Below are positions 2,147-57,865 of a stretch of DNA of 64,000 nt, in pieces; position 1 is the stretch's first letter, and every line of letters begins with the position of its first letter. The notes beneath the pieces were generated by a model, which had not been told where the DNA came from, searched no databases, and saw nothing but the letters and a program-made list of their open reading frames with translations. The stretch is from a bacterium. GTDB lineage: Bacteria; Ratteibacteria; UBA8468; B48-G9; JAFGKM01. The translations under genes and the position numbers were made by a program. The DNA is taken from assembly GCA_023230585.1 (NCBI GenBank), contig JALNXB010000003.1, positions 22,060-86,059 of the forward strand, written 5' to 3'.

Positions 2147-3460
2147 TTAAAAGTTCATCTGTAACTGCCATCTAAAAAATAGAGCGTTATCTCTGTCTGA
2201 AGCATAAAAATTTCCCGGCTTGAAATATTCAAGTAACATTAGACCATCTATATTTTTGTTAAACTTATGAAACAATTGTACCTGTCCCAGATGTCCTCTC
2301 TCTTTGCCTGTTCCAAAAAAGACTGCAGGCGCAGGGTTGTCGTTTGCCCTTAAATAATTGTAAGCAAGACAAAAACCTGTTTTATCTGTTATCTTCATAT
2401 CAGTTTTCGCTCGCCATATCTGCAAGTTTGTCCAATACCCAACCTCGTTCCTTTCTATAACTGAATGGAACACGTACAGTTCACTTAACCAGGGCCATTT
2501 TGAAAAGAGTGGGTTCCACCCTTTATCTTTATCTCCTGCATAAGGGTTACCATCGCCTGAAAGATAAGCATAACCAATATCAAGGGTAGGTGAAAGTTTT
2601 GCTTCTGTAAAAGCTCTTTTTAAGAAAATATAGCCACCTAAACCGCTCCTATCTCTGTTATCATCGTATTCACCAAACTGGTACGCAAGTTCGCCCCTTA
2701 AACTCCAAGGAGCAAAATTATAGACAGCCCTATTTCCAACAGTGTTAAGTTTAAGTTTTTCTATATAATTACCTGCTCTTGTATGAGCATCTTCAGTTTT
2801 ATGTATATAGTATGGTTCAACAGAGAGGTTATCATCTACCTTAAATTTACCGTAAAGAATAACTGCTCTTTCATCCATTTTAGGGTATATAATGTTTCTA
2901 TCTTGGTCGTTTATTAAAGGAAGGTATTCATCTTGATAAGTGTTCTGAGTGTATATAATATCAAGCGAGTTTTTTTCATCAAACCTTAGGGTAGCCTTTG
3001 CTGCGTTAAAATATAAAGACCTACCTCCATCGGAAGGAGTTCCATCCATTATTAAGAACCCTTCACCGTGGGTCATAAGAAAATCTTGTCGCCCTAACCT
3101 CAAATCGACAGGCATCCCAAAAGCGTTTTTAACATCAAGGTATAAGTTATCAAAAAATATTTCTTGATCTTTCAATTCTTTCCCACCCGACATCTGCCCG
3201 GTTGTACTCAAGTAATACTTAGGTTCTGTTGTAAGTTTTACAAACATATTCACATCATCAGAAAAATTCCATTTGCCCCAAACACTTGCTTTAAGACGAA
3301 AATAATTGTCATCACGCATTATATTGGCTTTATTAAAGTCAAACACATTCTCTACGCACTCTTGTCTGAGTCTTAAATAAAAACCGTAATCAAATACTCC
3401 GTCCGCAAAAACTGTGATAGAAAAACTCAAAAATACCAGAAGCAATTTAACTTTTCTCAT
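2147..3460 (-). CDS. Outer-membrane beta-barrel protein (alginate-export/porin-like), signal peptide
   Basis: N-terminal signal peptide MRKVKLLLVFLSFSITVFA. Composition is rich in Tyr/Gly/Asn/Asp with alternating amphipathic strands. The C-terminal residue is aromatic (ends ...WQLQMNF), the classic OMP beta-barrel signature. Confidence 0.5.
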   Translation of the reverse strand: MRKVKLLLVFLSFSITVFADGVFDYGFYLRLRQECVENVFDFNKANIMRDDNYFRLKASVWGKWNFSDDVNMFVKLTTEPKYYLSTTGQMSGGKELKDQEIFFDNLYLDVKNAFGMPVDLRLGRQDFLMTHGEGFLIMDGTPSDGGRSLYFNAAKATLRFDEKNSLDIIYTQNTYQDEYLPLINDQDRNIIYPKMDERAVILYGKFKVDDNLSVEPYYIHKTEDAHTRAGNYIEKLKLNTVGNRAVYNFAPWSLRGELAYQFGEYDDNRDRSGLGGYIFLKRAFTEAKLSPTLDIGYAYLSGDGNPYAGDKDKGWNPLFSKWPWLSELYVFHSVIERNEVGYWTNLQIWRAKTDMKITDKTGFCLAYNYLRANDNPAPAVFFGTGKERGHLGQVQLFHKFNKNIDGLMLLEYFKPGNFYASDRDNALFFRWQLQMNF

Positions 3461-3791: not shown

Positions 3792-4217
3792 TTAGACATT
3801 AAAATTTTCAACACTTCTATAATTATTCTTCTTTAAAATATCTTCCGCTTTTTCTATATCTGTTGAAGCGACCTTAAGAATAAGGGCGGCTTTAACACCT
3901 TCATCCATTATAAATCCATAGGCGTCTTCTATGTTGATACCCTCATCCTCAAGAATTTTGGCAACCTTATGGAACGCCCCAACCTTATCGGGCATCTCCA
4001 CCACGACAACTTCTTGGAATGAAACAAGAAAATTTTCTTCTTTTAAAATAGCAAACGCTTTATCATTATCATCGGTTATCAATTTTATAATCCCAAAACT
4101 TCCGCTATCGGCTATTGTCATAGCCTTCATATTTATTTTGGATTTTTCAAGTATACCAGTTATTTTATTTATTTTACCAGGTTTATTTTCTACAAAAATA
4201 GAAATCTGTTTACCCAT
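3792..4217 (-). CDS. ACT-domain protein (tandem ACT domains)
   Basis: 141 aa. MGKQISIFVENKPGKINKITGILEKSKINMKA... follows the ACT beta-alpha-beta-beta-alpha-beta pattern, with a second ACT-like half. It lies immediately downstream of a paaK-like gene, the common paaK-ACT pairing. Confidence 0.6.
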   Translation of the reverse strand: MGKQISIFVENKPGKINKITGILEKSKINMKAMTIADSGSFGIIKLITDDNDKAFAILKEENFLVSFQEVVVVEMPDKVGAFHKVAKILEDEGINIEDAYGFIMDEGVKAALILKVASTDIEKAEDILKKNNYRSVENFNV

Positions 4218-4220
4218 TGT

Positions 4221-5516
4221 TCACAATCTCCTTTTATCTAATACTCTTTTGGCTTTACCAGTAGAGGTTGGAAGAGTACCAGGCTCAACAAGTTCAATCA
4301 CAGGGGTTACAAGAACCACTCTTCTCAAATTTTCTCTTAAAGTTTCTTGCAAATTTTTTAACTGTCTTAACTCACCTTTAAAATAAGTTTTCTGAATTTC
4401 AATCTGTATTAATAATATATCTAAACCTTCTTTTCTGTCAAGAATTATCATATAGTTCTTGTCTACTCCAGGCGTCTCCATCAGTACAGTTTCAATCTGA
4501 GAAGGAAAAATATTTACTCCTTTAACTATAAACATATCGTCGCTTCTACCTTTTATACGAGCTATCCTACGACATACCCGCCCACATTTACATCTACCAT
4601 TCAAGAATTTTGTTATGTCTTTTGTCCTATAACGAATAATAGGCATACCTTCTCTTTTGAGAGTGGTTAAAACAAGTTCGCCTTCTTCACCGTCAGGCAA
4701 AACCTCCCCGGTGATTGGGTCTATTATTTCTGCTAAATAGTTATCTTCCCAAAGGTGCATACCGTTTTGATGTTCACATTCAAAAGCAACACCAGGACCG
4801 TTCATCTCGGAAAGCCCATAACAGTTATGGACCTTTATATTAAATATCGTCTCCAGTTTTTTTCTGGTAGCTTCGGAGTATGACTCTGCGCCCATTATAG
4901 CTATCTTCAAGTCAAAACTTTTAGCAGGAGATAAACCTTTCTCTTCGAGAGCGTGCCCTAAATGTAAAAGATAACTTGGGGTGATATGGGCTACTGTTGT
5001 TTTAAGGTCTTTTAAAAAACTTATTTGTCTATCTGTATTTCCTGTGCCTATAGGTATAACCATAGCCCCTATTTTCTCTGCACCATAATGTAGCCCCAGC
5101 CCGCCAGTAAAAAGTCCGTAACTCATCATATTTTGAAAGATATCGGTTTTTCTTACCCCTGCAGAATATAATCCCCTTGCAACTAAATCTGCCCAGTTAT
5201 CAACATCCTTTTTTGTATGAAAAATAAGTGTAGATTTACCCGTAGTACCTGAAGAAGCGTGCATCCTAACAACATTGTCAAGAGAGGTTGCAAGCATCCC
5301 TGAAGGATAACTTTCTCTTAAATCGTCTTTAAAAGTGAAAGGATATTTTCTAATATCTTCCAATTCAACTATATGAGCATCCAATTTGTGTTTCTTAAAA
5401 AAACTTTTGTAATATACAGATTTATTCGCTGTTGAAACAGTTTTTTTTAATCTTTCCAGTTGAATGTTTTTCAACTCGTCTTCTAATATAATCTCTTCTT
5501 TCTCTTTCCAGTACAT
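4221..5516 (-). CDS. paaK: Phenylacetate-CoA ligase family (PaaK-like, AMP-forming)
   Basis: 431 aa, the length of PaaK. Contains the adenylate-forming motifs SSGTTGKSTL (P-loop-like) and YGLSE. Architecture matches the PaaK/F390-synthetase family. A paralog lies at 9411..10736. Confidence 0.8.
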   Translation of the reverse strand: MYWKEKEEIILEDELKNIQLERLKKTVSTANKSVYYKSFFKKHKLDAHIVELEDIRKYPFTFKDDLRESYPSGMLATSLDNVVRMHASSGTTGKSTLIFHTKKDVDNWADLVARGLYSAGVRKTDIFQNMMSYGLFTGGLGLHYGAEKIGAMVIPIGTGNTDRQISFLKDLKTTVAHITPSYLLHLGHALEEKGLSPAKSFDLKIAIMGAESYSEATRKKLETIFNIKVHNCYGLSEMNGPGVAFECEHQNGMHLWEDNYLAEIIDPITGEVLPDGEEGELVLTTLKREGMPIIRYRTKDITKFLNGRCKCGRVCRRIARIKGRSDDMFIVKGVNIFPSQIETVLMETPGVDKNYMIILDRKEGLDILLIQIEIQKTYFKGELRQLKNLQETLRENLRRVVLVTPVIELVEPGTLPTSTGKAKRVLDKRRL

Positions 5517-5581
5517 TATTTTCCTTTCTTTTACATAAATATCATAAAAATTATTTGCAATTTAATATATATATCATTCTT

Positions 5582-7108
5582 TCATCTAATAAACATACCT
5601 GTTTTACTTTCTTTAATAAGTTTTTTAGATGGTTTAGATGTAAATAAACTAACAATTACCATTACCAAAATTGATATTAAGAAAGCATAAAAACTAAAAT
5701 GGAACGGTAGAGGACTCTTAAATTTTGCGTACGCTCCAAAAACAAAAGCAAATATATACCCAGTAACCATAGACCATATAGCGCCGTGCTTATTGGCTCT
5801 CTTCCAATATAGTCCAAACAATATAGGAACAACAAATGTAGTTAACATTATTCCTATACCCATCCATATAAGCCACGCCAAAAGTGCAGGCGGGTTAATA
5901 GCAAGAAGAAAACTGATTAAGCCAAACACTATAACTGCCACCCTGCTTACAACAGTTACTTTTCTATCATTAGCATCTTTTTTGAACAACTGTTTATAAA
6001 AATCCCATCCACAACAGGTACCTATAACAAGCAATAACCTATCCGTTGTTGACATAACAGCAGCAAGTATGACCACAGCAAAAAAAGCCCAAGTAGCTCG
6101 AGGTAAAGCATATTTAATCCCAACAAGAAACGAATCGTCTGGTTTTTCTATTACAACAAGCCCGTTTTCAACTAGTGTTCTTACTGCCATCCCTGACATT
6201 TTAATCAGGTACATTATCATTATATACATAACAAAAACTAATAGAGGCGCCCACTTAAAATGTTTTTTATTTTTTACTGCTATAACATTGTTGACTATAT
6301 GAGGACCTGAACCAAGCCCAAAAGTCAACAAAAAGAAGAATGAGATAAGAAACAATGGTGTTGTGAAAGCATAACCAGGAACTGGTGGATGTGCCTGAGG
6401 ATAAGCAATTTTAAGCATATTAGGGTCTATATTTCCCATTGTTGTATTTATAGCAGACAACCCTCCTGCACTCTGTATTATAATAGGTGCTACAAGCAGA
6501 ACTCCAAAAAATATAATGAACCCTTGAAAAAGAGTTGTCCAGGAGACTGCATATAGCCCGCCAAGCAAAACGTAGATAACAACGATTACAGCCCCTATAA
6601 ACAATGCTTGAGTTTGAGGAATTCCAAGCAACCATTTTAAAACAATGGCTATTGCTGTATATTGCCCGACTAAATATATTAAAGAGGTTGTAAGAACAGC
6701 TATAGAAGAGATAGTTCTAACAACTTTAGGGCTTTCAAATCTGTATGCAAGATAATCTTGAAGGGTAAGAAACTTTTTATCTTTACATACTTCATATAAT
6801 TTATATCCGTAAAATATTATTGCTACAGCACAAGTGAGTGGAACAAAAATCTGTTCCCAAAAAGTTGGCCATCCTGCTATATATCCAAGCCCAGAAACAC
6901 CAAGAAGAGTCATCCCGCTTGTTGTAGAACCAAGTATAAGCATAACAAAAAGCCAAAAACCTAAATTTTTTCCTGCCGCTATATAATCTGAAGCAGTTTT
7001 AATCTTCTTACTTGAAACCATTCCAATAACAAGCATAAAAACAAGGTAAAGAACAACAACAATAATACTTCCTAATCCCATATTTCCACTGTCCATAAAT
7101 TCCTCCAA
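5582..7108 (-). CDS. Sodium:solute symporter family (SSF) transporter
   Basis: 508 aa with about 13 predicted TM helices. The N-terminal region matches the SSF signature (DYIAAGKNLGFWLF). A paralog lies at 7204..8762. Confidence 0.75.
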   Translation of the reverse strand: MEEFMDSGNMGLGSIIVVVLYLVFMLVIGMVSSKKIKTASDYIAAGKNLGFWLFVMLILGSTTSGMTLLGVSGLGYIAGWPTFWEQIFVPLTCAVAIIFYGYKLYEVCKDKKFLTLQDYLAYRFESPKVVRTISSIAVLTTSLIYLVGQYTAIAIVLKWLLGIPQTQALFIGAVIVVIYVLLGGLYAVSWTTLFQGFIIFFGVLLVAPIIIQSAGGLSAINTTMGNIDPNMLKIAYPQAHPPVPGYAFTTPLFLISFFFLLTFGLGSGPHIVNNVIAVKNKKHFKWAPLLVFVMYIMIMYLIKMSGMAVRTLVENGLVVIEKPDDSFLVGIKYALPRATWAFFAVVILAAVMSTTDRLLLVIGTCCGWDFYKQLFKKDANDRKVTVVSRVAVIVFGLISFLLAINPPALLAWLIWMGIGIMLTTFVVPILFGLYWKRANKHGAIWSMVTGYIFAFVFGAYAKFKSPLPFHFSFYAFLISILVMVIVSLFTSKPSKKLIKESKTGMFIR

Positions 7109-7203
7109 ATCTTTATTTAAATGTTAGAGCCCACCAGAGAAGCCAAACTATACCCGCTAACGGTAATACCAAAAAAAACATAAGAAAAGTCGATAAAGGC
7201 AAA

Positions 7204-8762
7204 TTAAACATTTTTCCCTCCAAATAGTTTCTTCAATGTTTCTTCAGAAACAGGTTTTGTCAATAAACTTACAACAAAATATACTACACCACAACCAATA
7301 AGAACTATAAACTCCAAAGTACCCATACCTATTTTATTTTGTGTTACAAATATACTACCAATTAAGGTTGAAACAACTCCATAAACCATACAAGCTATAG
7401 CCCCAGCAGCAGTAGCTCGTTTCCAATAAAATGAGACCGCTGTACAAAAGATAAAAATACCTCCCAACCCAATAGAAGCGTATCCCATAAATACGGCAAG
7501 TAAGGTGGAGTATTCTTAAATGCCCAGTAAAAAGGAATGAAAAGGAAAATACCTATAAACACTTTTGTCAGTTTTAATAAAGTGCTGGAAGATGTTTGAG
7601 GACGCCAAATATATATAATATCCCTTGTAACATTTCCTGCCATAACCATTATCATAGCAGAAAGAGTAGAAAGAGCAGCCGCAAAAACGCCTGTTACATA
7701 TAAAATCGTTAAAGGTTTTCCTCCTGCAACCATAGCAAGAAATGGAGCAGCAAGGTCCCCTTTCCAGGGGTTAATATTCAGCAACTCTTGACCAAAAACA
7801 GCTCTGCTACATAAACCTGTTATAGCATTAAGAAATATTGGAGGTCCAGCTACAAGAAAAACCATAAGGGTTACAAGAAAGAAATCTTTCTTATTCAATT
7901 TCTTCATACCTACAAATCTTGCCACATTATGGGGGAACCCGGTAGCCATAGTCAAAAATATAAAAAGAGTAGCGAGAACTCCAACAGGGCTTGAAAATAG
8001 TTGAGCATTACCTACCTTTGGCAAATCGTCTCTAATTAGATTAATAAGAGCTGGGTTTTCTGCTGCAAGTTTCATATTTAAAGCAGTCGGTCCCCCAACA
8101 AAAATAAGGGATACTATCCCAAGCGCAAAACAGGCAATTCCAAGTATAGCTCCCTGTATAGCAAGAGACCATTGTGTGCCAGTATAACCTCCAACCACCA
8201 TATATATAAAAACTACAACACCTGATATTAGAAGACACCATAACGCAGGAAGTTTTGTCACAGCATACCATATAGTTGCACCAGCTTTAAACTGACCAAC
8301 CGCGTAAAGAATCATAAAAAATATCATAATAAGAGCTGAAAGGGATTGCACCACTTTGCTGTCAAATCTTATGCAGAGCGCTTCAGAAACAGTTTTTGCC
8401 CCAAATTTCTGAGAATACATCTGCATTTTTTCCCCTGTAAAAAAAAGGCAAGGCATAATACCTACAATTGTCCATATACCTGCAAACCACATACCAGACC
8501 AACCAAAAGAATAAGTTATTCCCATCATTCCAAGAGCAGCCCACCCGCTTAACCAGGTTGCTCCAAGAGCAAGTCCGGTCACAATAGGACCTATATCATT
8601 ATGTCCTGACAAGAAAGATTCAAAAGATTTGGCCTGTTTTCTACTTAAAAATCCAACAGTAATACATACCAGCAACATTAAGCCAATACCGACAATTGCC
8701 CATAACGCATACGATTTATCAGGAGCAAGAAGGGTTTTTACTATATTGCTTGCCTCAATCAT
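7204..8762 (-). pseudogene. SSF transporter paralog interrupted by a frameshift (or sequencing error) near 7505-7520
   Basis: ORF 7395..8762 (455 aa) is SSF-like up to ...IPFYWAFKN, then becomes non-homologous. ORF 7204..7488 (94 aa, a different frame) reads ...FMGYASIGLGG...SFYWKRATAAGAIACMVYG, which aligns to the C-terminus of the neighbouring intact SSF (FGLYWKRANKHGAIWSMVTGY). The two ORFs overlap by about 95 nt. A single-base shift around gcatttaagaatactcc (rc) would fuse them into a protein of about 520 aa. Confidence 0.6.
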
Positions 8763-8922
8763 TTTTCCACCCCCTTATCCTTAAAATCAGCCCAACAATT
8801 GTGAATACTGTGCTTAATACAACAACAATCCACCATGTTGCCCAATTTTTGTCCATATATCTCCTTTGTCCCGTTTGTTACGAAAGTTTTAAGAAAAAAC
8901 GTCACAAGGTGTAATTAGTTTA

Positions 8923-9363
8923 TTATATTCTTTCTATATCCTCTCTTTCAAGAAGTTTTATGTTTTCTTCTCTTAATACTGTCGCAGCTTTTTCTGGTTC
9001 CTCCACCCTTACCACTACCAGAGCTTTGTCTCCTGATTTTTCTACAAATGCGTATATATATTCCACATTAACAGAGTTGCTCTCGAGAGGTTCTATTATA
9101 GCCAGAAGACCGCCAGGTTTATCTATAACTTCCGCAACAATCACAGGAGTAAGGTTTACAGAGATATTTTCATCTTTAAGAATTTCAACGGCTTTTTCTG
9201 TCTCTTGCACAATGAGTCTTAACATACCGTAATCTGATTTTTCAGCCAACGACATGGCTCTTATATTGATTTTATTTTTACTTAAAACAGCCAAAACTTC
9301 TTTAAGTCTACCCAACCTGTTTTCAAGAAAAACAGAGAGTTGCATAATAAACATATTCTTCAC
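8923..9363 (-). CDS. ACT-domain protein (tandem ACT domains), paralog of 3792..4217
   Basis: 146 aa. MKNMFIMQLSVFLENRLGRLKEVLAVLSKNKINIRAM... is the ACT pattern. Same gene order as the first cassette. Confidence 0.6.
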   Translation of the reverse strand: MKNMFIMQLSVFLENRLGRLKEVLAVLSKNKINIRAMSLAEKSDYGMLRLIVQETEKAVEILKDENISVNLTPVIVAEVIDKPGGLLAIIEPLESNSVNVEYIYAFVEKSGDKALVVVRVEEPEKAATVLREENIKLLEREDIERI

Positions 9364-9410
9364 CTCCTCCTATTGCTCATATTTTAAGGTGTTTGAAAGA
9401 TTTTTGTTTT

Positions 9411-10736
9411 TTATCTTTTATCTATAACTCTTTTGGCTTTACCTTCACTTCTTTGGATACTTTTTGGCTCTACAAGTTTAACTTTAACAGATATCCCGAG
9501 AGCACTTTCTATTTCTGAAACCATTTTTATTTCTAACGTCTCTAATTTTTTGATTTTATCAGAAAAAATATTTTCATTCATTTCTACCTGAACTTCCATT
9601 TTATCAAGGTACCTTTCTTTTGTTATAATAAGTTGATAATGGGGCGCAACTTCTGGCATATTCATTAAAACTGTTTCTATTTGAGATGGAAAAATATTGA
9701 CCCCTCTTATAATCAACATATCATCAATCCTACCTTTAATTTTACTTATCCTTGGCATTGTTCTACCGCAATGAGTACACGGTTGGTTAGTCAAAGTAAC
9801 AATATCTCCTGTTCTGTATCGTATCAACGGTAGAGCTTCTTTAGTAAGTGTTGTTATAACCAATTCTCCTTCTTCATCTTCTTCAAGAACCTGCCCTGTT
9901 GAAGGGTCGATAATTTCTGGATAAAAATGGTCTGCCCATATATGTAAACCTTCTTTACCTGCACACTCCATAGCAACGCCAGGACCTATAATTTCTGATA
10001 AACCGTATATATCGAGAGCCGTTATATTCCATTCTTTTTCTATCTGTTCTCTCATCCCTTCTGTCCAAGGTTCAGCACCTAAAATACCAACCTTAAGTTT
10101 AGTAGTAAAAGGGTTGAAACCGTATGCTCTCGCTTCTTCTGCCATAAAAAGCGAATATGAAGGAGTACAGGTTAAAGCCGTGCTACCAAAATCTTTCATT
10201 ACAGCAAGTTGCCTTTTTGTGCCACCAGCAGAAATAGGTATTACTGTTGCACCCAGTTCAAGTGCCCCGTAATGGACTCCCAACCCGCCGGTGAAAAGAC
10301 CGTATCCATAGGCGTTTTGTATTATATCGCCATTCCCAATATTGGCACAAACAAGAGACCTTGCCATAACCTCTGACCAGAGTTTAATATCTCTCTGAGT
10401 ATACCCTACAACAGTCATTTTACCAGTTGTACCCGTTGAAGCGTGTATTTCAAAAACTTCTCCCATAGGCACAGCAAAAAGAGAAAACGGGTAATGGTCT
10501 CTCAGCGTTGATTTGAGCGTAAAAGGTAAATATTGTAAATCTGAAAGACAAGAAAACTTTGAAATGTTTATCTTCTTTTCATCAAAAGATTTACTATAAA
10601 ATGGCACCTTTTCTGAAACGTACTTAACAACATCTTTTAGTCTCTCAATTTGTATTGCTTTTAATTGAGCAGAAGCAGCAATCTCAATATCTTTGTTAAA
10701 ATAGTTCATACCTTCTCCTATAATATTTCTTTGCAA
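9411..10736 (-). CDS. paaK: Phenylacetate-CoA ligase family (PaaK-like), second copy
   Basis: 441 aa. Contains [12 protein letters not shown] and [11 protein letters not shown], with the same domain order as 4221..5516. The copies have diverged (about 45-50% identity by eye). Confidence 0.8.
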
Positions 10737-10947
10737 TTATACCAATATTATCTTATAATAATCTATTATTTATCCTTATAATTTAGACTCTACTTGCTTT
10801 TTTGTCAAATATTCCTTCCTTACTTTAAAAGGAAAACAGGAATCCCCCTTAAACAGGTACGGTTAAGTTTGCAAACAATAGTGGAGAGTAGAAAAGAGGG
10901 TATAAAAGAGTGGAAATAGCAATAATTGTAATAAGGAAATAAAAGAT

Positions 10948-12729
10948 ATGACTAAAAAATATTTACTTGGAAATGATGCTATTGCGTATGGTTTAATTGA
11001 AGGTGGAGTAGAAGGTGTCTTTGGATACCCAGGAACTCCTTCATCTGAAATAACACAAAAACTTATTGAACTTTCGAAAGAATATAGGTTTTATGCAGAG
11101 TGGTCCGTGAACGAAAAGGTTGCTTATGAAAACGCCTACGGCGCTTCTTTGACAGGCAAAAGAACGGTTGTTATTATGAAGCACGTTGGCTTAAATGTTG
11201 CTTCAGACGCTTTTATGACATCCGCATACACAGGAGTAGAGGGAGGGTTTGTTATAATTGTAGCAGACGATCCTTTTGCTCACTCTTCACAAAATGAACA
11301 AGATTCCCGCAGGTACGCTATATTTGGTAAAGTTCCTTACTTTGAGCCGTCTTCAATACAGGAAGCTAAAGATATATCCACATTTGCTTTCTCTTTCTCA
11401 GAAAAGATTGGGCTACCTGTCATTATAAGAAGCGTAACAAGAATATCTCATGGTAAATCGGATGTGATATTAGGGAATATCAATAAGAACTACTCTAAAA
11501 CTTCTTTCAAAAAAAATCCTGAAAAGTTTGTTATGGTCCCTGCCAATGCAAGGACTGCACTAAAAAAACTTAATGAGAAACAAGAATATATTAAAACAGA
11601 GATAGAGAAATTGCCTTTCAATTCAGAAGAGAAAGGGGATGCAACAGGAATAATAGTTTCAGGTATTTCTTACCAATATGTGAAAGAAATAAAAGAAAAA
11701 CATAACCTATCTTTCTCGCTTCTAAAAATATCTTCATACCCCATACCAGATAAACAAATAACCAGTTTTATCAAAGATAAAAAAGAAGTTATAGTTTTTG
11801 AAGAAGGAGAACCTGTCATTGAAGAAAATATTTATATTATCGCAAAAAAATATGGTTCAAATATCCTTATAAAAGGTAAGTTAGAAGGAACTCTCCCCAT
11901 AGAAGGAGAATATTCTCTTGAATTGGTTGAAAAAACTCTTGTTGGTCAAAACATCCACACCTCAAACCTAACATCAAAATCTCAACCTTTGCCAGTAAGA
12001 GCCCCTGTGTTGTGCCCAGGATGTCCGCATATAGGGTCTTTCCATATACTTAAAAAAGTCTTTGGAAAAGATTCTATCTTTCCTGGTGACATAGGATGTT
12101 ACACTCTTGGTGTACAGTTGGGAACTATTGATACTTGTCTATGTATGGGGGCAGGAATAAGTATGGGGACAGGAATATCAAGATTTGAAAAGGATAGACC
12201 TGTTATATCAATAATAGGTGATTCTACCTTTTTTCATTCAGGTTTAACTGGACTTATAAACGCTTGCTATAATAAAGCAGACCAGATTGTGGCTATTTTA
12301 GATAACAGAACAACTGCAATGACTGGTCACCAACCTCATCCAGGAACAGGAGAAACAGCTATAGGTGAACCTACAATCAATATCAATCTTGAACAGTTAA
12401 TTCTTGCAATGGGTATTGAGAAGGTTATAACAGTTGACCCTTATTTCATTAAAGAATCTATTGAAAAATTAAAAAACTTCAAAGACTATAAAGGGGTTAG
12501 GGTAATTATTTTTAAGAGAAATTGTATTTTCGTAGGTAAACAACCTAAAAAACAGTTTTTTGTTGATAAGAACAAATGTACTGGGTGTAAACTATGTTTG
12601 CAACTTAAATGCCCTGCTATTATTTTTAAGGATGGGAAAGCAGAGATAACCAACCAATGTAGTGGTTGCGGGATATGTGTAGAAATATGTCCTTTTAACT
12701 CCATAGAGGAAATTAAAGATGGAAACTAA
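10948..12729 (+). CDS. iorA: Indolepyruvate:ferredoxin oxidoreductase alpha subunit (TPP-dependent, with 2x[4Fe-4S] ferredoxin domain)
   Basis: 593 aa. The N-terminus GYPGTPSSEI is the IOR/POR TPP-domain signature. A central TPP-binding GDIG-like motif is present (GDSTFFHSG). The C-terminal CTGCKLCLQLKCP...CSGCGICVEICP is a double ferredoxin motif, as in IorA. Confidence 0.8.
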   Translation: MTKKYLLGNDAIAYGLIEGGVEGVFGYPGTPSSEITQKLIELSKEYRFYAEWSVNEKVAYENAYGASLTGKRTVVIMKHVGLNVASDAFMTSAYTGVEGGFVIIVADDPFAHSSQNEQDSRRYAIFGKVPYFEPSSIQEAKDISTFAFSFSEKIGLPVIIRSVTRISHGKSDVILGNINKNYSKTSFKKNPEKFVMVPANARTALKKLNEKQEYIKTEIEKLPFNSEEKGDATGIIVSGISYQYVKEIKEKHNLSFSLLKISSYPIPDKQITSFIKDKKEVIVFEEGEPVIEENIYIIAKKYGSNILIKGKLEGTLPIEGEYSLELVEKTLVGQNIHTSNLTSKSQPLPVRAPVLCPGCPHIGSFHILKKVFGKDSIFPGDIGCYTLGVQLGTIDTCLCMGAGISMGTGISRFEKDRPVISIIGDSTFFHSGLTGLINACYNKADQIVAILDNRTTAMTGHQPHPGTGETAIGEPTININLEQLILAMGIEKVITVDPYFIKESIEKLKNFKDYKGVRVIIFKRNCIFVGKQPKKQFFVDKNKCTGCKLCLQLKCPAIIFKDGKAEITNQCSGCGICVEICPFNSIEEIKDGN

Positions 12730-13291
12730 AAATAGGTGCGATATTTTAATATCAGGAGTTGGGGGTCAAGGTATTCTTTTATGTTCAGATATACTTGGGG
12801 AGGCTTCTATTTATGAAAACCTTCCAGTAAAAGGTGCTGAAGTTCATGGTATGGCACAAAGAGGCGGTTCAGTTGAAGCTCACGTGCGTATAGGTTGTTC
12901 TTATGGACCTATGATACCTCTTGGTAAAGCAGATATACTATTAGCAATGGAACCTCTTGAAGGTGCAAGGTATTCTTACTATTTGAAAGAAGGTGGGTTT
13001 GCAGTAGTAAATACTAGAAGAATCCCTCTGCTCGGAGAAGAGTATGATATTGAAAAGACGCTCTCAATTATAAGAGAAAAAACATCAGATATTATAGCAG
13101 GGGATTTTTTTAACTCAGTTCAGAAGGTATCTTCCGGTAAAGCATTAAACATTTTTATGTTAGGTATAGCGTCATCTAAAATACCACTCAAAAAAGAGTC
13201 TTTACTGTTAGCAATAGAAAAGAACGTAAAAGAAAAATTTGTTCAGATGAACCTAATGGCTTTTGAGGAAGGAATTAAAATAGGTACCTAA
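12719..13291 (+). CDS. iorB: Indolepyruvate:ferredoxin oxidoreductase beta subunit
   Basis: 190 aa. ILISGVGGQGILLCSDILGEA is the POR-gamma/IorB Rossmann-like signature. The start overlaps the iorA stop by 11 nt. Confidence 0.75.
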   Translation: METKNRCDILISGVGGQGILLCSDILGEASIYENLPVKGAEVHGMAQRGGSVEAHVRIGCSYGPMIPLGKADILLAMEPLEGARYSYYLKEGGFAVVNTRRIPLLGEEYDIEKTLSIIREKTSDIIAGDFFNSVQKVSSGKALNIFMLGIASSKIPLKKESLLLAIEKNVKEKFVQMNLMAFEEGIKIGT

Positions 13292-20852: not shown

Positions 20853-21773
20853 TTAAACATATTGATACGGGAATGCTCCCCATTCAGATAAGATTTGCGG
20901 TTCAATATTGTAAAACTTTCCTATAGCTATTCTTTTTACATTTTCAAGTTCAATATCTCTGGCTAAAAAATAGAAAAACAGTGGTTCCATACCGTATGGC
21001 ACAATCCTTACACGGCTAAGGTACCCCATCAAAACTTTGAACCTTTCTCTATCAAAAATATCTATTTCAATAGGAACATCTATATTTTTATAAACGTTTT
21101 TTACTGTTTTCCATAAAACTTCTTCTTTCAAAAAATGCTCTTTCTTTATATTTCCACCATCTATAAAATTTTCCTGTTCAAGATGTTTACCGGTAAGTCT
21201 CTTATGCATAAATAAAGAAATATTAGAAAAATCTATCTCAATTTGCAGAAAATAGTTTATCATAGAAGATTTTTGAGTTTTTAAGAGAAGACCTGCTACC
21301 TCATAGTAAGATTGTTTTAAAGATAAAGATATTTCTTCAAAACTTTTATCTTTTAGTTTATTAAGAATAGAAAGTGCAGGTTTAAGAAAAGCCGGTATAT
21401 TCTTATGGTTATTTGTTTTAAAAGATGCCTGAAGTATTTTGTAGTTTACAATTGAATAATCAGAAAAGTTTTCGTTCTTTCCGTTAGCAACAATATTTAG
21501 GTTATGATAATCATATTTTAAAACAAAATATTGGTATAAAGGGATAGGAAGATTTTTTTTAGACTCTTCAATTAGGATAGTTTTTTTGTTATTAAATAGT
21601 TCAGTAAGAGTTTCAATAGTTTTGATATTGTTAGGAATCTCATAAGGAGATTTTTCAAGGATAGTACTAAACTCGTTAAAATCTCGAGATAGAACCAATT
21701 TTTCTATTCTATCTGCCCTCAAAAAATGTTTCTCAAGAGATTTTATACGGCTACTAACGGACAAAATATTCAT
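20853..21773 (-). CDS. atpC: V-type ATP synthase subunit C (d subunit)
   Basis: 306 aa. The internal block VLKYDYHNLNIVANGK and the C-terminal EPLFFYFLARDIELENVKRIAIGKF match conserved blocks of bacterial NtpC/AtpC (KYDYHN..., E..NLR.I..GK). It follows atpK and atpE on the same strand. Confidence 0.7.
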   Translation of the reverse strand: MNILSVSSRIKSLEKHFLRADRIEKLVLSRDFNEFSTILEKSPYEIPNNIKTIETLTELFNNKKTILIEESKKNLPIPLYQYFVLKYDYHNLNIVANGKNENFSDYSIVNYKILQASFKTNNHKNIPAFLKPALSILNKLKDKSFEEISLSLKQSYYEVAGLLLKTQKSSMINYFLQIEIDFSNISLFMHKRLTGKHLEQENFIDGGNIKKEHFLKEEVLWKTVKNVYKNIDVPIEIDIFDRERFKVLMGYLSRVRIVPYGMEPLFFYFLARDIELENVKRIAIGKFYNIEPQILSEWGAFPYQYV

Positions 21774-22351
21774 TATATCTCCTTCAAGATACTAAAATCT
21801 TTCAAGAGAAGAGGCAATTGGTTAGGGTTATATACAGCTACAGCAGGATGATACAGCACAACGATTTTTATCCTGTTAAAAATATCCTCAGATTTTTCAA
21901 AAACTTGCCCGTGGAGACTACTTATAGTACCTTCAACTTTTATGTCAAACTTGTTAAATATATTCTTAAAAGCGTGCCTACCAAGACAACAGATAACTTC
22001 GGGGTTTATAATCTGTATCTGTTTTTCAAAAAACTCTTTACAGTTTTCAACCTCTTCATCTTGTGGGTCCCTATTCTTAGGAGGTCTACATTTTATAATG
22101 TTTGTTATATAGATTTGGTTTCTTGTAAGTTGTACAGATTCAAGAAGAGTATCTAAAATATTTCCAGCTTTCCCGCAAAAAGGGATACCTGTTTTATCTT
22201 CGTTAAAACCGGGAGCTTCACCCACAAAAAGTATTCGAGTATTTACATCCCCTGCACCAAACACAACATTATTTCTTGTTTGCCAGAAATTGCACCTTTT
22301 ACAACCTACCGCTTCCGCTTTAAGTATCTCTATTTGTTTTATTTTTGTCAT
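21773..22351 (-). CDS. udg: Uracil-DNA glycosylase, family 4 (Fe-S type)
   Basis: CKRCNF...GEAPGFNEDKTGIPFCGKAGNILD...IYITNIIKCRPP are the family-4 UDG motifs (GEAPG..ED, [4Fe-4S] cysteines). The likely start is MTKIKQ (22351). The longer track ORF overlaps atpE. A 1-nt overlap (ATGA) links it to atpC. Confidence 0.8.
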   Translation of the reverse strand: MTKIKQIEILKAEAVGCKRCNFWQTRNNVVFGAGDVNTRILFVGEAPGFNEDKTGIPFCGKAGNILDTLLESVQLTRNQIYITNIIKCRPPKNRDPQDEEVENCKEFFEKQIQIINPEVICCLGRHAFKNIFNKFDIKVEGTISSLHGQVFEKSEDIFNRIKIVVLYHPAVAVYNPNQLPLLLKDFSILKEI

Positions 22352-22889
22352 TATCTTCAAAAAGTTCTTTACCAATTTTTTCTCTTATGTATCCCTCTAT
22401 AGATTGGCTAAACCGTTCCCAATTAAAGAGAAGTTTCCAGTTTTTTCCTTCCAAAAGAAAAGAATCGGTAATATTAGCGTCTTTTACAATCTTCGCACCT
22501 TCTATATTTATATCAGAAGACGCCTCTGGAACTTTTATAACCAAATTTTTCTCTTCAACATCTTTCAGAAGACCAGTAATAATACTGGTTATATTCTCTT
22601 TTATGAAAAGATTGAACTTTTTTTTCAGTCCATCCATAACCTCTTTTATCAATACATTTTGAAGTAGAAGCAACTCTTTTTCTTTCTCAAGCCGAAAAAG
22701 ACCTACCTCGATTTCTTTTTCTTTATCTATATTTTCTTTCGCAGATAAAAGTTTTACTTCAAACTCTTTAGTAATAAGTTCTTTTCTTTCTAATAGAGTT
22801 TTTTCAAGTTTTTCAACTGCTTTTCTTATAGTTTCTTCTGATTTAGTTTCAGAGTCCAAAATAATTTTTTCTGTGAGTCGTTTTACCAT
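22320..22889 (-). CDS. atpE: V-type ATP synthase subunit E
   Basis: 189 aa with a long N-terminal charged coiled-coil (EKLEKTLLERKELITKEFEVKLLSAKENIDKEKE) and a globular C-terminus, the architecture of V/A-type E subunits. Located between atpK and atpC. Confidence 0.6.
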   Translation of the reverse strand: MVKRLTEKIILDSETKSEETIRKAVEKLEKTLLERKELITKEFEVKLLSAKENIDKEKEIEVGLFRLEKEKELLLLQNVLIKEVMDGLKKKFNLFIKENITSIITGLLKDVEEKNLVIKVPEASSDINIEGAKIVKDANITDSFLLEGKNWKLLFNWERFSQSIEGYIREKIGKELFEDNDKNKTNRDT

Positions 22890-22904
22890 TTTACTTTTTA
22901 ATAT

Positions 22905-23381
<477 letters not shown>

Positions 23382-23395
23382 TTAATTGCCTCCAT

Positions 23396-24583
23396 TTACG
23401 AATTTTTAGCCTTAATCTTTTTAAGCAAGGCAGGTACGACTTCAAAAACATCTCCTACTATACCCACATTAGCTACCTTAAATATAGGAGCGTCAGGGTC
23501 TTTGTTTATTGCTATAATATAATCTGAGGTTTGCATACCTGCAAGATGTTGTATTGCACCTGATATACCGCAAGCAATATAGATTTTAGGTTTAACAGTT
23601 TTACCTGTCTGACCTACCTGGTGTGGGTATGGCATCCACCCTGAATCAACAGCAGCCCTTGAAGCTCCCACAGCTCCACCAAGAGCATCTGCCAGTTCTT
23701 TAATAATAGCAAAGTTCTTAGGGTCTTTAAGCCCCCTACCACCAGAAACTATAACCTCAGACTCTTGTAAATCAACAATATTGTCAATTTTTTCTCTACC
23801 ACAAAATGTAACCTTATTTTTTATTTTTGACTTATCAAGTTCTTCAACAACAACTTCTGCTTTTCCTGATATTAATGGTGCATCATCAAAAACTTTAGGT
23901 CTTATTGTTGCCATTTGAGGTCTATGGTTTTTACATATTATCTTTGCCATAAGGTTACCCCCAAAAGTTGGTCTTGTCTGCAACAATAGTTTTGTCTCTT
24001 CATCAATGTCTATGCCTGTACAATCGGCTGTTAAACCGGTCTTAACAATGGCCGCAACCATAGGAATAAAAGCTCTACCCATCATTGTTGCACCAGCAAT
24101 AACAATATTAGGAGTATATTTTTCTATAAGTTGTGCCATAGCAAAAGCATAAGGTTCCTCTTGAAAATAATCTAAAGCAGGGTCGTCAATAACATAAACC
24201 TTATCAGCACCTCTTTTACCAAGTTCTTCAACTAAACCAGTAACATTGTTACCTAAAATTATACCAGACACCTCTTCATCAAGACTCTTTTTAAGTTTAA
24301 GAGCCCCGTTTAACATTTCAAGAGCAACCGAAGATAGTTGCCCGTCCCTACTTTCAGCAAAAAACCATATACCTTTATAATGGTCAATATTGGTTTTAAA
24401 GTCTTCTTTTTCTTCTTTATAGAGAGCGTCTTCAGGGCAAACCTTAACACATAAACCACATAAGGTACAGTTTTCGTTTATATATAGCCTACCATCTTTT
24501 ATTTCAATTGCTTCAAAAGGACATTCGTTAATACATTCCTTACAGAGAGTACATTTTTCGTATATTATTTTTACCATAGCCAT
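23396..24583 (-). CDS. etfA: Electron transfer flavoprotein alpha subunit with N-terminal 2x[4Fe-4S] ferredoxin domain
   Basis: N-terminal CTLCKECINECP...CTLCGLCVKVCP (double ferredoxin), then an EtfA FAD-binding domain (VVSGGRGL...ADALGGAVGASRAAVDSGW). The ferredoxin-fused form is common in anaerobes with bifurcating Etf (FixB-like). Confidence 0.8.
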   Translation of the reverse strand: MAMVKIIYEKCTLCKECINECPFEAIEIKDGRLYINENCTLCGLCVKVCPEDALYKEEKEDFKTNIDHYKGIWFFAESRDGQLSSVALEMLNGALKLKKSLDEEVSGIILGNNVTGLVEELGKRGADKVYVIDDPALDYFQEEPYAFAMAQLIEKYTPNIVIAGATMMGRAFIPMVAAIVKTGLTADCTGIDIDEETKLLLQTRPTFGGNLMAKIICKNHRPQMATIRPKVFDDAPLISGKAEVVVEELDKSKIKNKVTFCGREKIDNIVDLQESEVIVSGGRGLKDPKNFAIIKELADALGGAVGASRAAVDSGWMPYPHQVGQTGKTVKPKIYIACGISGAIQHLAGMQTSDYIIAINKDPDAPIFKVANVGIVGDVFEVVPALLKKIKAKNS

Positions 24584-24584
24584 T

Positions 24585-25370
24585 TTACACTACCCCCAAA
24601 TCTTCAAGTTCTTTATATAAAGCCGATGCAAGTTCTTCTGGCTCTCCTTCAACTTTTTTTCCTTCTTTCTGCAACTGTTCAGTCCAAACATCAACAACTC
24701 TTGTTGGAGAACCTTCCTGCCCAAAATTGCATTTTTCTCCTTCTACATCGCAACAACGACAAAACCCTACCTCAGCCTTTTTTGCTTTCAACATACCTTT
24801 AAGAGAAGGTATCCTCGGTTGGTTGATTTCTTTAATAACTGTTATAAGAACTGGTAGTTCTGCTTTTAACTCTTCATAATGGTCTTCCATAAGACGCACA
24901 CAATGTATCTGACCAGAAGAGATATCTATTATTTTGCTCACATAAGTAATATATGGAATACCAAGGTGATAGGCAGTTTCTGGTCCAACCTGCCCTGTAC
25001 TACCGTCAAGAGTCTCTCTACCACACAGTATAATATCAAAATCTTTCAATGTTCTTATACCACAACTTAATATATAAGAGGTTGCGAGAGTATCGCTACC
25101 TGCAAATTCCCTATCACTTAACAGAAGTGCTTCATCAGCCCCCATAGATATAGCCTCCCTAAGAGCTTTTTCTGCCTGAGGCGGTCCCATAGATACAGCC
25201 GTGACCTTACCTCCAAACTTCTCTTTTATTCTAACTGCTTCTTCTATTGCGTAAGTATCATAAGGATTTATAACACTTTCAACGCCTTCTCTTACAATCC
25301 TGTTGGTTTCAGGATCTATTTTTACTTCAAAAGTATCAGGAACCTGCTTAATGCAGACAATTATATTCAT
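24585..25370 (-). CDS. etfB: Electron transfer flavoprotein beta subunit
   Basis: MNIIVCIKQVPDT... is the canonical EtfB/FixA N-terminus. The likely start is the internal Met (25370). The 17-codon upstream extension in the track ORF is probably not translated. Confidence 0.8.
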   Translation of the reverse strand: MNIIVCIKQVPDTFEVKIDPETNRIVREGVESVINPYDTYAIEEAVRIKEKFGGKVTAVSMGPPQAEKALREAISMGADEALLLSDREFAGSDTLATSYILSCGIRTLKDFDIILCGRETLDGSTGQVGPETAYHLGIPYITYVSKIIDISSGQIHCVRLMEDHYEELKAELPVLITVIKEINQPRIPSLKGMLKAKKAEVGFCRCCDVEGEKCNFGQEGSPTRVVDVWTEQLQKEGKKVEGEPEELASALYKELEDLGVV

Positions 25371-25539
25371 ATACAAATCCCCTTGTAAACGAGTTTTAGA
25401 ATAAAAACTCTTCTTTTTCAAGTTTCTCTTTATTTAGAAAATTTATTATAGCACAAAAAGAATATATTTTAAAAAGTAACCTCTACTATACTCATACCTG
25501 TTAGCACCAACTGTTTACAAATTACCAGTCGTTTAAAAA

Positions 25540-31557: not shown

Positions 31558-31615
31558 TAGCAACTCCTTAAAATTAGAAACCCCTCCTAAATACACTTTT
31601 TTATAATAAAACAAG

Positions 31616-31689
31616 TACCCCTGGCCCGATTCGAACAGGCGACACACGGTTTAGGAAACCGTTGCTCTATCCATCTGAGCTACAGGGGC
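31616..31689 (-). tRNA. tRNA-Arg (anticodon CCT)
   Basis: The reverse complement reads GCCCCTGTAGCTCAGATGGATAGAGCAACGGTTTCCTAAACCGTGTGTCGCCTGTTCGAATCGGGCCAGGGGTA. It has a cloverleaf with a D-arm GCTC/GAGC, an anticodon stem ACGGT/ACCGT with loop TTCCTAA (anticodon CCT), and a T-arm GCCTG-TTCGAAT-CGGGC. A 7-bp acceptor stem has a G1:U72 wobble. No encoded CCA. Confidence 0.8.
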
Positions 31690-37773: not shown

Positions 37774-37956
37774 TTAGGTTGAAGATTCATTTTCGATGGT
37801 TTGGATTTCTTCTTCGGTTAGGTCGTGGAGTTTATAGACAAGTTGGTCGATTTGTTTTTCGTATTCTTTAACTTTTGCTTGTTTGTTAGAGTTTTCTAAA
37901 TAGTCATCATCTTTAGTAGTAGCAAGGATTTTAGAATTATTCAAATCAATCTTCAT
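37774..37956 (-). other. Displaced C-terminal tail of the adjacent methyltransferase gene (separated by a +1 frameshift)
   Basis: The 60-aa ORF ends ...EKQIDQLVYKLHDLTEEEIQTIENESST. This is the canonical C-terminal tail of type IIG/Eco57I/PglX-class MTases (...IDrLVYeLYgLTeEEIkiVE). Its start overlaps the MTase stop (37946), and the frames differ by one nucleotide around ggaaatgaagattgattt (rc). Confidence 0.5.
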
Positions 37957-50608: not shown

Positions 50609-51211
50609 ATGAGTTTAACAGAGAAACAACAAAAGATACTTGATTACATTAAAAAACAGATTCAAGAGAACGGCTACCCGCCCACAATACGAGAGATAGG
50701 TGAAAAATTCTCTTTATCTTCAACAGGTAGCGTTAGGGACCATTTAAAAGTTCTTAGTGACAAAAAATATATAGAACGTCTTCCTGGAATCTCACGAGGT
50801 ATTCGGTTACAGGATAAACCTTTACAATCTTCTTCTACTTCTATCCCCGTTGTAGGAAGGATTACTGCTGGCAAACCAGAACTTGCCATAGAAGATATTG
50901 AGGGCACAATATGCATAGATAAAAAACTTGTTGATAAAGGTACAACTTTTGCTTTAAAGGTTAAGGGAGATAGTATGATTGACGCAGGTATACAAGAAGG
51001 TGACTATGTAATTGTTAAACCTCAAAATGTATGTGAGCAGGGTGAAATTATTATTGCTTTGATTGAAGGTGAAGCCACAGTAAAAAGGTTCAAACGTAAA
51101 GGTAACAACCTTTTTTTACAACCAGCCAACCCTTCTTATGAACCAATAAAAATTGATGAAAGGGTCAAAATTATAGGTAAAGTAGTCGGTCTTATAAGGT
51201 ATTACAACTAA
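50609..51211 (+). CDS. lexA: LexA repressor (SOS response)
   Basis: The N-terminal winged-HTH is ...LTEKQQKILDYIKKQIQENGYPPTIREIGEKF. The C-terminal S24 peptidase domain carries the catalytic Ser in VKGDSMIDAGI and the Lys in GEATVKRFKRKGN. The autocleavage region PVVGRITAGKP holds the AG cleavage bond. Confidence 0.85.
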   Translation: MSLTEKQQKILDYIKKQIQENGYPPTIREIGEKFSLSSTGSVRDHLKVLSDKKYIERLPGISRGIRLQDKPLQSSSTSIPVVGRITAGKPELAIEDIEGTICIDKKLVDKGTTFALKVKGDSMIDAGIQEGDYVIVKPQNVCEQGEIIIALIEGEATVKRFKRKGNNLFLQPANPSYEPIKIDERVKIIGKVVGLIRYYN

Positions 51212-51226
51212 AAGGATAACCATAAA

Positions 51227-51475
51227 ATGATGGAAGAAATTATGGAAGAAATAGAGATAGAGGCACACTTTAGTAGCAACAAAATTAAACCAAAATGGTT
51301 CCTATGGAACAATAGAAAATATTATATAGATAAAGTAAACTATATCTGGCACAATAAAGACGGAGAAGAGGTTATCTACTATTTTTCAGTAGTTGTTGGT
51401 GCTAATCTTTATGAACTCTCTTTTTATACAAAAAAACTCAAATGGCTCTTAAGCAAGGTTTATATTGAGGGATAA
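51227..51475 (+). CDS. Small hypothetical protein co-transcribed between lexA and dinB
   Basis: 82-aa ORF with a good RBS spacing (aaaaggataacc). It abuts the dinB start. Family not recognised; YolD-like or other SOS accessory proteins are a possibility. Confidence 0.4.
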   Translation: MMEEIMEEIEIEAHFSSNKIKPKWFLWNNRKYYIDKVNYIWHNKDGEEVIYYFSVVVGANLYELSFYTKKLKWLLSKVYIEG

Positions 51476-51476
51476 A

Positions 51477-57806: not shown

Positions 57807-57865
57807 TTATTTCCACACCTCCTTAGCCAATTTTATTCTTATGCTAATATTTTTTTCATATCTGA

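Follow-up and report, generated by a model that had tools for sequence, protein, structure and literature searches.

The closest described relatives of the system treated here come from Bacteroides and from methanogenic archaea. In Bacteroides a two-subunit indolepyruvate:ferredoxin oxidoreductase (IOR), encoded by iorAB, adjoins an AMP-forming ligase of the PaaK family (BT0428 type; structure 4R1L); the IOR-linked ligase was assayed and found to be an arylacetate-CoA ligase, IORs were described as accepting phenylpyruvate, hydroxyphenylpyruvate and indolepyruvate, and the authors, noting that AMP-forming ligases favour the formation of acyl-CoA, proposed that it serves biosynthesis (PMC13285125). 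In Methanococcus maripaludis, according to a passage of PMC4162585 that cites Porat et al., aryl acids feed the synthesis of aromatic amino acids through an IOR (MMP0713/0714) that makes arylpyruvates from activated aryl acids. Here we describe a locus from an uncultured bacterium of the Ratteibacteria, contained in a stretch of 64,000 nucleotides (contig JALNXB010000003.1 of assembly GCA_023230585.1, positions 22,060 to 86,059; hereafter the window), in which iorA and iorB lie divergent from genes encoding two PaaK-family ligases (lig1 and lig2), two double-ACT proteins of the ACT_8 family (ACT1 and ACT2), two Na+/solute symporters of the SSF family (SSF1 and SSF2), two very small open reading frames (ORFs), and an outer-membrane porin.

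The chemistry and the linkage of IOR to a ligase are thus already known and the operon is widespread; the window represents one more member, equipped with lineage-specific importers. With respect to the Bacteroides cluster, whose ligase belongs to the same clade as lig1, the window adds a second ligase, the ACT_8 partners, the two SSFs, the two micro-ORFs and the porin. On the methanogen side, a Methanobacteriaceae locus recovered in this work (L062) shares the SSF, ligase, ACT and iorBA composition, whereas M. maripaludis differs from the host of the window in that the latter is a bacterium with an outer membrane. The presence of two ligase paralogues with different pockets in one organism has its counterpart in Burkholderia cenocepacia, with PaaK1 and PaaK2 (2Y27 and 2Y4O). 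Pseudomonas paa clusters carry a permease and a porin as well, but in contrast to the paa catabolon the window is devoid of paaABCDE, paaFGHIJ and paaZ, the partner enzyme is an IOR, the ligases score under the PaaK cut-off, the SSFs are not of the ActP/PaaL type and the porin is of the Alginate_exp and not of the OprD type. The oxidative clusters of Clostridia (HpdDEFG with the phosphate acyltransferase HpdJ and the kinase HpdK; the Clostridioides difficile IOR with kinases) also place an arylpyruvate 2-oxoacid:ferredoxin oxidoreductase beside an aryl-CoA or arylacetate enzyme. Those clusters, however, hold an ATP-yielding Pta-like enzyme plus kinase, or ADP-forming ligases, while the AMP-forming ligases, importers and ACT sensors of the window point the opposite way. 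Finally, the small subunit of acetohydroxyacid synthase (AHAS; IlvN/IlvH) offers a precedent for a free-standing ACT protein encoded beside an enzyme that is regulated by end-product binding; ACT_8 differs from it in being a pair of ACT domains in one chain of 140 residues, whose constant neighbour is an ANL ligase and not a thiamine diphosphate enzyme.

Proteins of the window were assigned to families with Pfam and NCBIfam profiles at their curated cut-offs. On the minus strand the order of transcription is lig2, ACT2, a micro-ORF of 33 residues, SSF2, a micro-ORF of 32 residues, SSF1, lig1, ACT1 and the porin gene; iorA and iorB occupy the plus strand, divergent from lig2 and 211-238 nt away from it. 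An earlier note on this sequence had described two co-linear, duplicated cassettes, each made of a ligase, a double-ACT protein and an SSF transporter, facing iorAB across a divergent promoter region. The genes it named were all found as ORFs where it had placed them, and every one of its family assignments was borne out: both ligases carry the AMP-binding and AMP-binding_C_2 domains, both ACT proteins match the ACT_8 "ACT domain pair" above cut-off, both transporters belong to PF00474, and iorA has the ferredoxin domain. The two cassettes, however, are not co-linear, since their orders differ (lig2-ACT2-SSF2 as against SSF1-lig1-ACT1). The term duplication is misleading as well, because the paralogues are ancient, each ligase having its own ACT lineage; the pairwise identities within the window (44% for the ligases, 35% for the ACT proteins and 25% for the SSFs) rule out a recent tandem duplication. 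Furthermore, the conserved unit exceeds the span covered by that note, as it includes the porin gene at 2147-3460 and the two micro-ORFs.

This arrangement is not due to chance, because its entire architecture is found again in relatives that share no more than 57-65% identity with the window in ACT2. Two loci, L006 (labelled Elusimicrobia) and L007 (from an anaerobic digester), have the order iorBA <> lig2-ACT2-microORF-SSF2-microORF-SSF1-lig1-ACT1-porin; a third, L008, shares this architecture up to SSF2, after which its contig ends, and L005 (labelled Omnitrophica) shows the order lig2-ACT2-SSF1-lig1-ACT1-porin. A wider set of loci was obtained by using an ACT_8 alignment to scan GTDB, each species being represented by one genome, which gave at least 600 matched stretches, of which 594 were confirmed; 80 loci were kept, and their six-frame ORFs were searched with the proteins of the window. 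The 80 loci come from Desulfobacterota, Geobacter, Nitrospirota, Planctomycetota, Verrucomicrobiota, Bacillota, Omnitrophota, Elusimicrobia, Lentisphaerae, Armatimonadetes, Actinomycetota and Deferribacterota, and one of them is archaeal, the metagenome-assembled genome (MAG) of Methanobacteriaceae mentioned above. A PaaK-like ligase lies immediately upstream of the ACT gene and on the same strand in 68 of the 80 loci. iorA is present in 43 of them and iorA or iorB in 46; among these 46, ior is strictly adjacent to and co-directional with the ligase-ACT pair in 35, and most of the 10 that our script left unclassified also use a single strand; the divergent arrangement was assigned, among the 46, only to L008, a close relative of the window. 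A second ligase was found in 44 loci and a second ACT_8 gene in 11; 14 loci contained an SSF gene and 10 a porin homologue.

To these counts the flanks add another type of importer: when the nearest other ORF on each side was classified with Pfam (136 ORFs), the top family was Peripla_BP_6, the binding protein of Liv-type ABC transporters, with 23 ORFs. The module therefore repeatedly recruits uptake systems of different families, and across phyla such systems (Liv-type ABC, SSF and porin) are its most frequent further neighbours. None of the Pta, Ack, ADP-forming ligase or aminotransferase families was among the 25 commonest flank families of these 136 ORFs.

Some further features of these neighbourhoods deserve mention. 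In Desulfobacterota, Geobacter and Nitrospirota (L009, L014, L017, L027, L030, L033, L038, L041 and others) the Peripla_BP_6 gene lies just downstream of the ACT gene, and loci with this Liv-type gene often have one more ligase, which lacks an ACT partner, some 5 kb downstream. In the Methanobacteriaceae MAG (L062, 4670-13027) two SSF genes are divergent from the ligase-ACT pair and iorBA is convergent, the composition being that of the bacterial window.

Both ligases of the window have the ANL core: lig1 (4221-5516, minus strand) and lig2 (9411-10736, minus strand; of the canonical PaaK type) present the P-loop S/T-GTTGK (SSGTTGK in lig1), the hinge GRxDD, the A10 lysine, a short AMP-binding_C_2 domain and the N-terminal region of PaaK, with the P-loop and the A10 lysine intact in each, and they align over their full length with 2Y27, 2Y4O and 4R1L. 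The probable start of lig2 is the ATG at 10709, which gives a protein of 432 residues instead of the 441 of the full ORF. The best NCBIfam model for the two proteins is TIGR02155 (485.5 bits for lig1 and 558.7 for lig2). Among the structures, lig1 matched best 4R1L, that is B. thetaiotaomicron BT0428 (492 bits, 50.6% identity), followed by PaaK2 and PaaK1 (378 and 369 bits), while lig2 matched best PaaK1 2Y27 (432.8 bits, 48.9% identity), then PaaK2 (421 bits) and 4R1L (369 bits); its identity to PaaK1/2 is 47-49%. Both are about 30-33% identical to the 2-hydroxyisobutyrate ligase.

A neighbour-joining tree of 125 ligases (the window copies, those of the other loci and four PDB sequences) resolved four groups. 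A large clade with ACT2-type proteins downstream holds lig2, with Burkholderia PaaK1/2 nearby; a second clade comprises second ligases without ACT; a third, with ACT1-type proteins downstream, holds lig1 and BT0428 (4R1L); and the fourth is divergent. By this tree, a placement that the earlier note had recommended, and by the profile and structure scores, both ligases fall inside the aryl-acid PaaK clade, and not with the 2-hydroxyisobutyrate, AjiA1 or F390-type enzymes. Coenzyme F390 synthetase was also rejected as an identity by its model TIGR03335 (142.7 and 137.4 bits against a cut-off of 458.7), and the FlxY, DVU1553-type and BagE identities were ruled out by score.

The residues presumed to line the aryl pocket distinguish the two enzymes. 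At these six positions lig2 reads Y-F-V-A-I-P and PaaK1 Y-F-A-A-I-P, five of the six being the same and A147 being replaced by Val, and in the lig2 clade position 136 is Tyr in 70 of 74 sequences and position 236 Ile in 62 of 74. The corresponding residues are M-F-L-A-C-P in lig1 and S-F-F-A-S-P in BT0428; in the lig1 clade Met occupies position 136 in 14 of 16 sequences, and Ser or Cys position 236 in all 16. Two of the six positions, F141 and A214 (PaaK1 numbering), have support from published residues, Tyr164/Ser239 of HCL and Phe146 of 4R1L. These clade-specific differences in the presumed pocket support the substrate specialisation that had been suggested for the two copies, and they do not indicate the preferred acid of each. 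That lig1 and lig2 act on arylacetates appears probable from their neighbours in the tree, the assayed BT0428-type ligase (PMC13285125) and PaaK1/2. As for the ACT-less clade B ligases found at other loci (L016:10493, L045:10434 and L082:6553, among others), the residue equivalent to PaaK1 I236 is always Asn (24 of 24) and the one equivalent to Y136 is Phe, a combination that suggests a third, more polar substrate.

The ACT_8 proteins follow the ligases closely. ACT1 (3792-4217, minus strand), the partner of lig1, starts 3 nt past the lig1 stop and matches PF19571 with 69.6 bits and the structure 2F06 with an E value of 4.7e-22; ACT2 (8923-9363, minus strand), the partner of lig2, gave 90.7 bits and 6.9e-27, respectively, the cut-off of PF19571 being 23.5 bits. 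The probable start of ACT2 at 9354 yields 143 residues, the same length as a database copy with 100% identity. Two glycines, G18 and G84, one at the start of each ACT repeat, are invariant across 30 ACT_8 sequences, and we take them to be residues of the ligand loop between beta1 and alpha1. Both proteins also match the ACT_AHAS_ss model (E values of 5e-11 and 2.6e-10), and the structures of AHAS small subunits were matched weakly. In Bacteroides the ACT_8 protein of known structure, 2F06, was deposited as BT0572, which by gene numbering is presumably not adjacent to BT0428.

In a neighbour-joining tree of 101 ACT_8 proteins, those encoded behind lig1-type ligases formed an exclusive clade (14 of 14), and therefore the ligase and its ACT protein diversified together. 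Ligase-ACT pairs were also found without ior nearby, for instance in Carboxydothermus; together with the neighbourhood counts, this led us to regard ACT_8 as a constant partner of the ligase; the two are usually in an operon with iorAB. The possibility that the ACT protein regulates IOR rather than the ligase was discarded on the same grounds, as pairs exist without ior and the window has two ACT proteins for a single IOR. We propose that each ACT_8 protein is the amino-acid-sensing regulatory partner of its own ligase, an assignment suggested by our comparison of neighbourhoods and trees. A bolder formulation, which we put forward tentatively and hold to be possible rather than probable, is that ACT_8 proteins act as allosteric subunits dedicated to the arylacetate-CoA ligases linked to IOR, with each co-evolving pair sensing a different aromatic amino acid and gating a different arylacetate into one promiscuous IOR, and that such feedback-controlled salvage, equipped with a porin, symporters and small symporter subunits of its own, is widespread among anaerobic bacteria and methanogens. 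In the literature searched we found no paper discussing the partnership of ligase and ACT_8, and nothing on symporter-linked micro-ORFs either.

The IOR itself is encoded by iorA (10948-12729, plus strand), the alpha subunit, which scores 759.7 bits with the equivalog model TIGR03336 against a cut-off of 650.9 and contains the POR_N, TPP_enzyme_C and Fer4 domains, with two CxxCxxCxxxCP motifs and a C-terminal 2x[4Fe-4S] domain, and by iorB (12719-13291, plus strand), the beta subunit, which overlaps iorA by 11 nt and matches PF01558 (POR) with an E value of 5.5e-34. The best NCBIfam models for iorB are all of IOR-beta type, with scores under their cut-offs (193.4 against 238 for NF005323, and 175.7 against 205.8). 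The IOR encoded by iorAB is predicted to act on arylpyruvates, and genomic context is what we use to argue for its physiological direction.

As to control of transcription, the intergenic region between lig2 and iorA (10737-10947) showed promoter-like matches not clearly above those of shuffled sequences. Promoter and terminator scans barely exceeded the shuffles (51 against 37.5 +/- 6.1 and 12 against 7.8 +/- 2.8, respectively) and gave no usable operon boundaries. An Rfam scan returned a single tRNA, and neither a T-box nor a riboswitch was found in the vicinity of the cluster.

Regarding transport, SSF1 (5582-7108, minus strand; 508 residues by ORF, called as 504) matches the full length of PF00474 (209.6 bits, E value of 9e-62), whereas SSF2 (7204-8762, minus strand) is frameshifted in the window and is represented by two overlapping ORFs, 7395-8762 and 7204-7488. 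Its truncated ORF scored 94.8 bits with PF00474, and the C-terminal piece matched the ends of PutP and PanF. The lesion is a deletion of 1 nt (TTT to TT, at about 7501) that splits the protein into 455 and 94 residues. An independent contig of 9151 bp (L001, Logan SRR6484323) encodes an intact SSF2 of 519 residues and differs from the window solely by one extra T, and L006, L007 and L008 likewise have an unbroken gene; the frameshift would then reflect a mistake of assembly or else a lesion of very recent origin. The ActP-type group of SSF proteins holds the phenylacetate permease. The reading of the SSFs as arylacetate importers, advanced in the earlier note, did not find support in the subfamily scores: the best models for SSF1 were PutP (197.9 bits, cut-off 515.5) and PanF (177 bits, cut-off 328), both below cut-off, while the ActP models gave 73-91 bits against cut-offs of 750-1099, so the SSFs are not of the ActP type.

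Each SSF gene is preceded by a micro-ORF encoding one hydrophobic helix. Micro-ORF 1 (7113-7211, minus strand; 32 residues, MFNLPLSTFLMFFLVLPLAGIVWLLWWALTFK) lies immediately before SSF1, its ATG overlapping the end of SSF2, and has a conserved counterpart at the same place in L006 and L007. Micro-ORF 2 (8755-8856, minus strand; 33 residues, MDKNWATWWIVVVLSTVFTIVGLILRIRGWKND) is translationally coupled to SSF2, its stop overlapping the start codon of that gene (ATGA). Gene calling recognised it in L001 and L007, and its homologues in L006, L007 and L008 are 63-75% identical, with 16 invariant positions. Both are as conserved as the surrounding proteins, and neither matched a Pfam or NCBIfam family even at an E value of 10 or less. 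They may be accessory subunits of the symporters.

The porin (2147-3460, minus strand) is an outer-membrane beta-barrel of the Alginate_exp family (PF13372; 51.1 bits against a cut-off of 25.2, model positions 19-389), with a signal-like N-terminus (MRKVKLLLVFLSFSITVFA) and a C-terminal end ...QMNF, whose last residue is Phe. In the window 331 nt lie between it and ACT1, and this gap contains a weak hairpin (3588-3568); in L005, L006 and L007 it stands directly behind ACT1. We presume that anionic aromatic acids enter through this protein. Porin homologues also adjoin the ior-ligase-ACT module in Planctomycetota and Verrucomicrobiota.

On balance, we consider it probable that the locus carries out a regulated salvage of arylacetates into aromatic amino acids. 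The Alginate_exp-type channel would let phenylacetate, 4-hydroxyphenylacetate and indole-3-acetate through the outer membrane, and the two Na+-coupled symporters, each with its small membrane subunit, would take them up. The two substrate-specialised AMP-forming ligases, lig2 with a narrow, PaaK-like pocket and lig1 with an altered, BT0428-like one, would convert them to aryl-CoA; a single IOR of broad specificity would then carboxylate the aryl-CoA reductively to the arylpyruvate at the expense of reduced ferredoxin, and an aminotransferase encoded elsewhere would yield Phe, Tyr or Trp. The double-ACT protein of each ligase would throttle the ATP-costly activation when the end product is plentiful. 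We favour this model because of the published precedents in Bacteroides and M. maripaludis, the association with importers, the occurrence in a methanogen (L062) and the pairing of an amino-acid-sensor fold with the entry enzyme. The uptake and activation of arylacetates feeding a reductive synthesis, as the earlier note had it, is hence retained as the best explanation, backed by the ligase clade, the neighbouring uptake systems and the published proposals, what we infer being the direction of flux, together with the substrates and the roles of the ACT proteins and the micro-ORFs. Its companion argument, that the opposite direction agrees less well with AMP-forming ligases and importers, has been published in the same anabolic sense for Bacteroides and methanogens; AMP-forming ligases can also run in reverse (PMC4992975).

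Several points weigh against this interpretation. Although TIGR02155, the PaaK equivalog, was the best model for both ligases, neither score reaches its cut-off of 646.3 bits, and four of the pocket positions (Y136, A147, I236 and P245, PaaK1 numbering) are presumed from the PaaK1 structure. Since the SSFs are nearer to the PutP/PanF-type than to the ActP-type models, an amino-acid substrate is possible, and no aromatic aminotransferase, shikimate or other aromatic-pathway gene was found within the 64-kb window. The ligand and the target of the ACT proteins are putative, what we observe being a genomic partnership and congruent clades, and the direction of the reaction is argued from context. 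Moreover, the synthesis of ATP by an AMP-forming ligase working in reverse is documented in Syntrophus (PMC4992975), and the B. thetaiotaomicron IOR is reported, in work cited by PMC13285125, to operate oxidatively in vivo and to contribute to the formation of phenylacetate from phenylalanine, at variance with the direction proposed here.

The last two observations also speak for the main rival, an oxidative fermentation, which we regard as unlikely. According to this scheme the SSFs import aromatic amino acids, these are transaminated, IOR oxidises the arylpyruvates to aryl-CoA with reduction of ferredoxin, and the ligases run in reverse (aryl-CoA + AMP + PPi -> arylacetate + CoA + ATP), with the ACT proteins activating the route in response to abundant amino acids. 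The best scores of the SSFs, with PutP-type (amino-acid) models, agree with it, and amino-acid sensing by ACT domains would fit both schemes; a simple ATP-yielding release would, however, have no need of two or three specialised ligases with their own sensors, and it is the ligases that the dedicated importers and the porin adjoin. Methanobacteriaceae do not live by amino-acid fermentation, and the carriers of the module include a methanogen MAG (L062) as well as many Desulfobacterota and Geobacter, which are respiratory. Reconstructions from MAGs routinely read IOR in the oxidative sense (PMC9324843, PMC8542988), but the characterised catabolic arylpyruvate clusters have a Pta-like enzyme plus kinase, or ADP-forming ligases, none of which is among the commonest flanks of the 80 loci.

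It is improbable, and in our opinion more so than the oxidative scheme, that the substrates are not, or not only, aromatic, in which case branched-chain, imidazole, methylthio or other amino-acid-derived acids would be salvaged to feed other amino acids. The PaaK clade has expanded to substrates other than phenylacetate (PMC8388817), the scores of both ligases and of iorB stay under their cut-offs, the presumed pocket of the lig1 type differs from that of PaaK1/2, and ligases of clades B and D accompany the module at other loci. In contrast, iorA passes the IOR equivalog cut-off, lig2 equals PaaK1 in five of the six residues presumed to form the pocket, arylacetates are the substrates of all the assayed enzymes nearest to the two ligases (BT0428-type, PaaK1/2), and the 2-hydroxyisobutyrate ligase is distant from both enzymes. 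Least credible of all is an arylacetate catabolism in which activation starts an anaerobic degradation (phenylacetyl-CoA to phenylglyoxylate to benzoyl-CoA) and the IOR-like enzyme acts on an aromatic 2-oxoacid: the porin, permease and ligase do resemble the uptake and activation set of aerobic paa clusters, such as phaJ/phaK/phaE of Pseudomonas putida, and phenylglyoxylate oxidoreductase belongs to the same superfamily as IOR, but no paaABCDE, phenylacetyl-CoA oxidoreductase, benzoyl-CoA reductase or ring-cleavage genes were found in the 64-kb window or among the frequent flanks of the 80 loci, iorA is an IOR equivalog and not PadG-like, and ACT sensors suit amino-acid metabolism better than the catabolism of xenobiotics.

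It is worth recording other features of the window. A fusion protein of 1113 residues with an Eco57I/MmeI-type N6-methylase adjoins an SNF2/helicase protein of 1121 residues (37946-44649, minus strand, and 32801-34546, plus strand), and a DDE transposase and a tRNA-Arg (31615-31689) lie near these genes, a region that looks like a defence or mobile island. At 20853-25421 (minus strand) a gene for uracil-DNA glycosylase breaks up those of a V-type ATPase (AC39-like, proteolipid c), and beside them are encoded an ETF alpha with an N-terminal pair of [4Fe-4S] clusters and an ETF beta, of the bifurcating type. An SOS cassette composed of a LexA repressor followed by a Y-family (DinB/ImpB) polymerase is located at 50609-52700 (plus strand). 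Finally, 57078-58645 (minus strand) encodes two N-methyl/DUF1559 prepilin-like proteins, which are typical of the Planctomycetes-Verrucomicrobia (PVC) group and agree with the Omnitrophota-like affiliation of the best ACT2 homologues.

In summary, the pairing of ligase and ACT_8 described here makes ACT_8 a simple candidate for a regulatory subunit that would be new among ANL ligases. When IOR is encountered in uncultured anaerobes, it is usually taken as a sign that aromatic amino acids are fermented (PMC9324843, PMC8542988); if the module is anabolic, many of these metabolic reconstructions would need the opposite arrow, IOR in MAGs would often stand for biosynthesis, and arylacetates would be cross-fed precursors of amino acids in anoxic communities.

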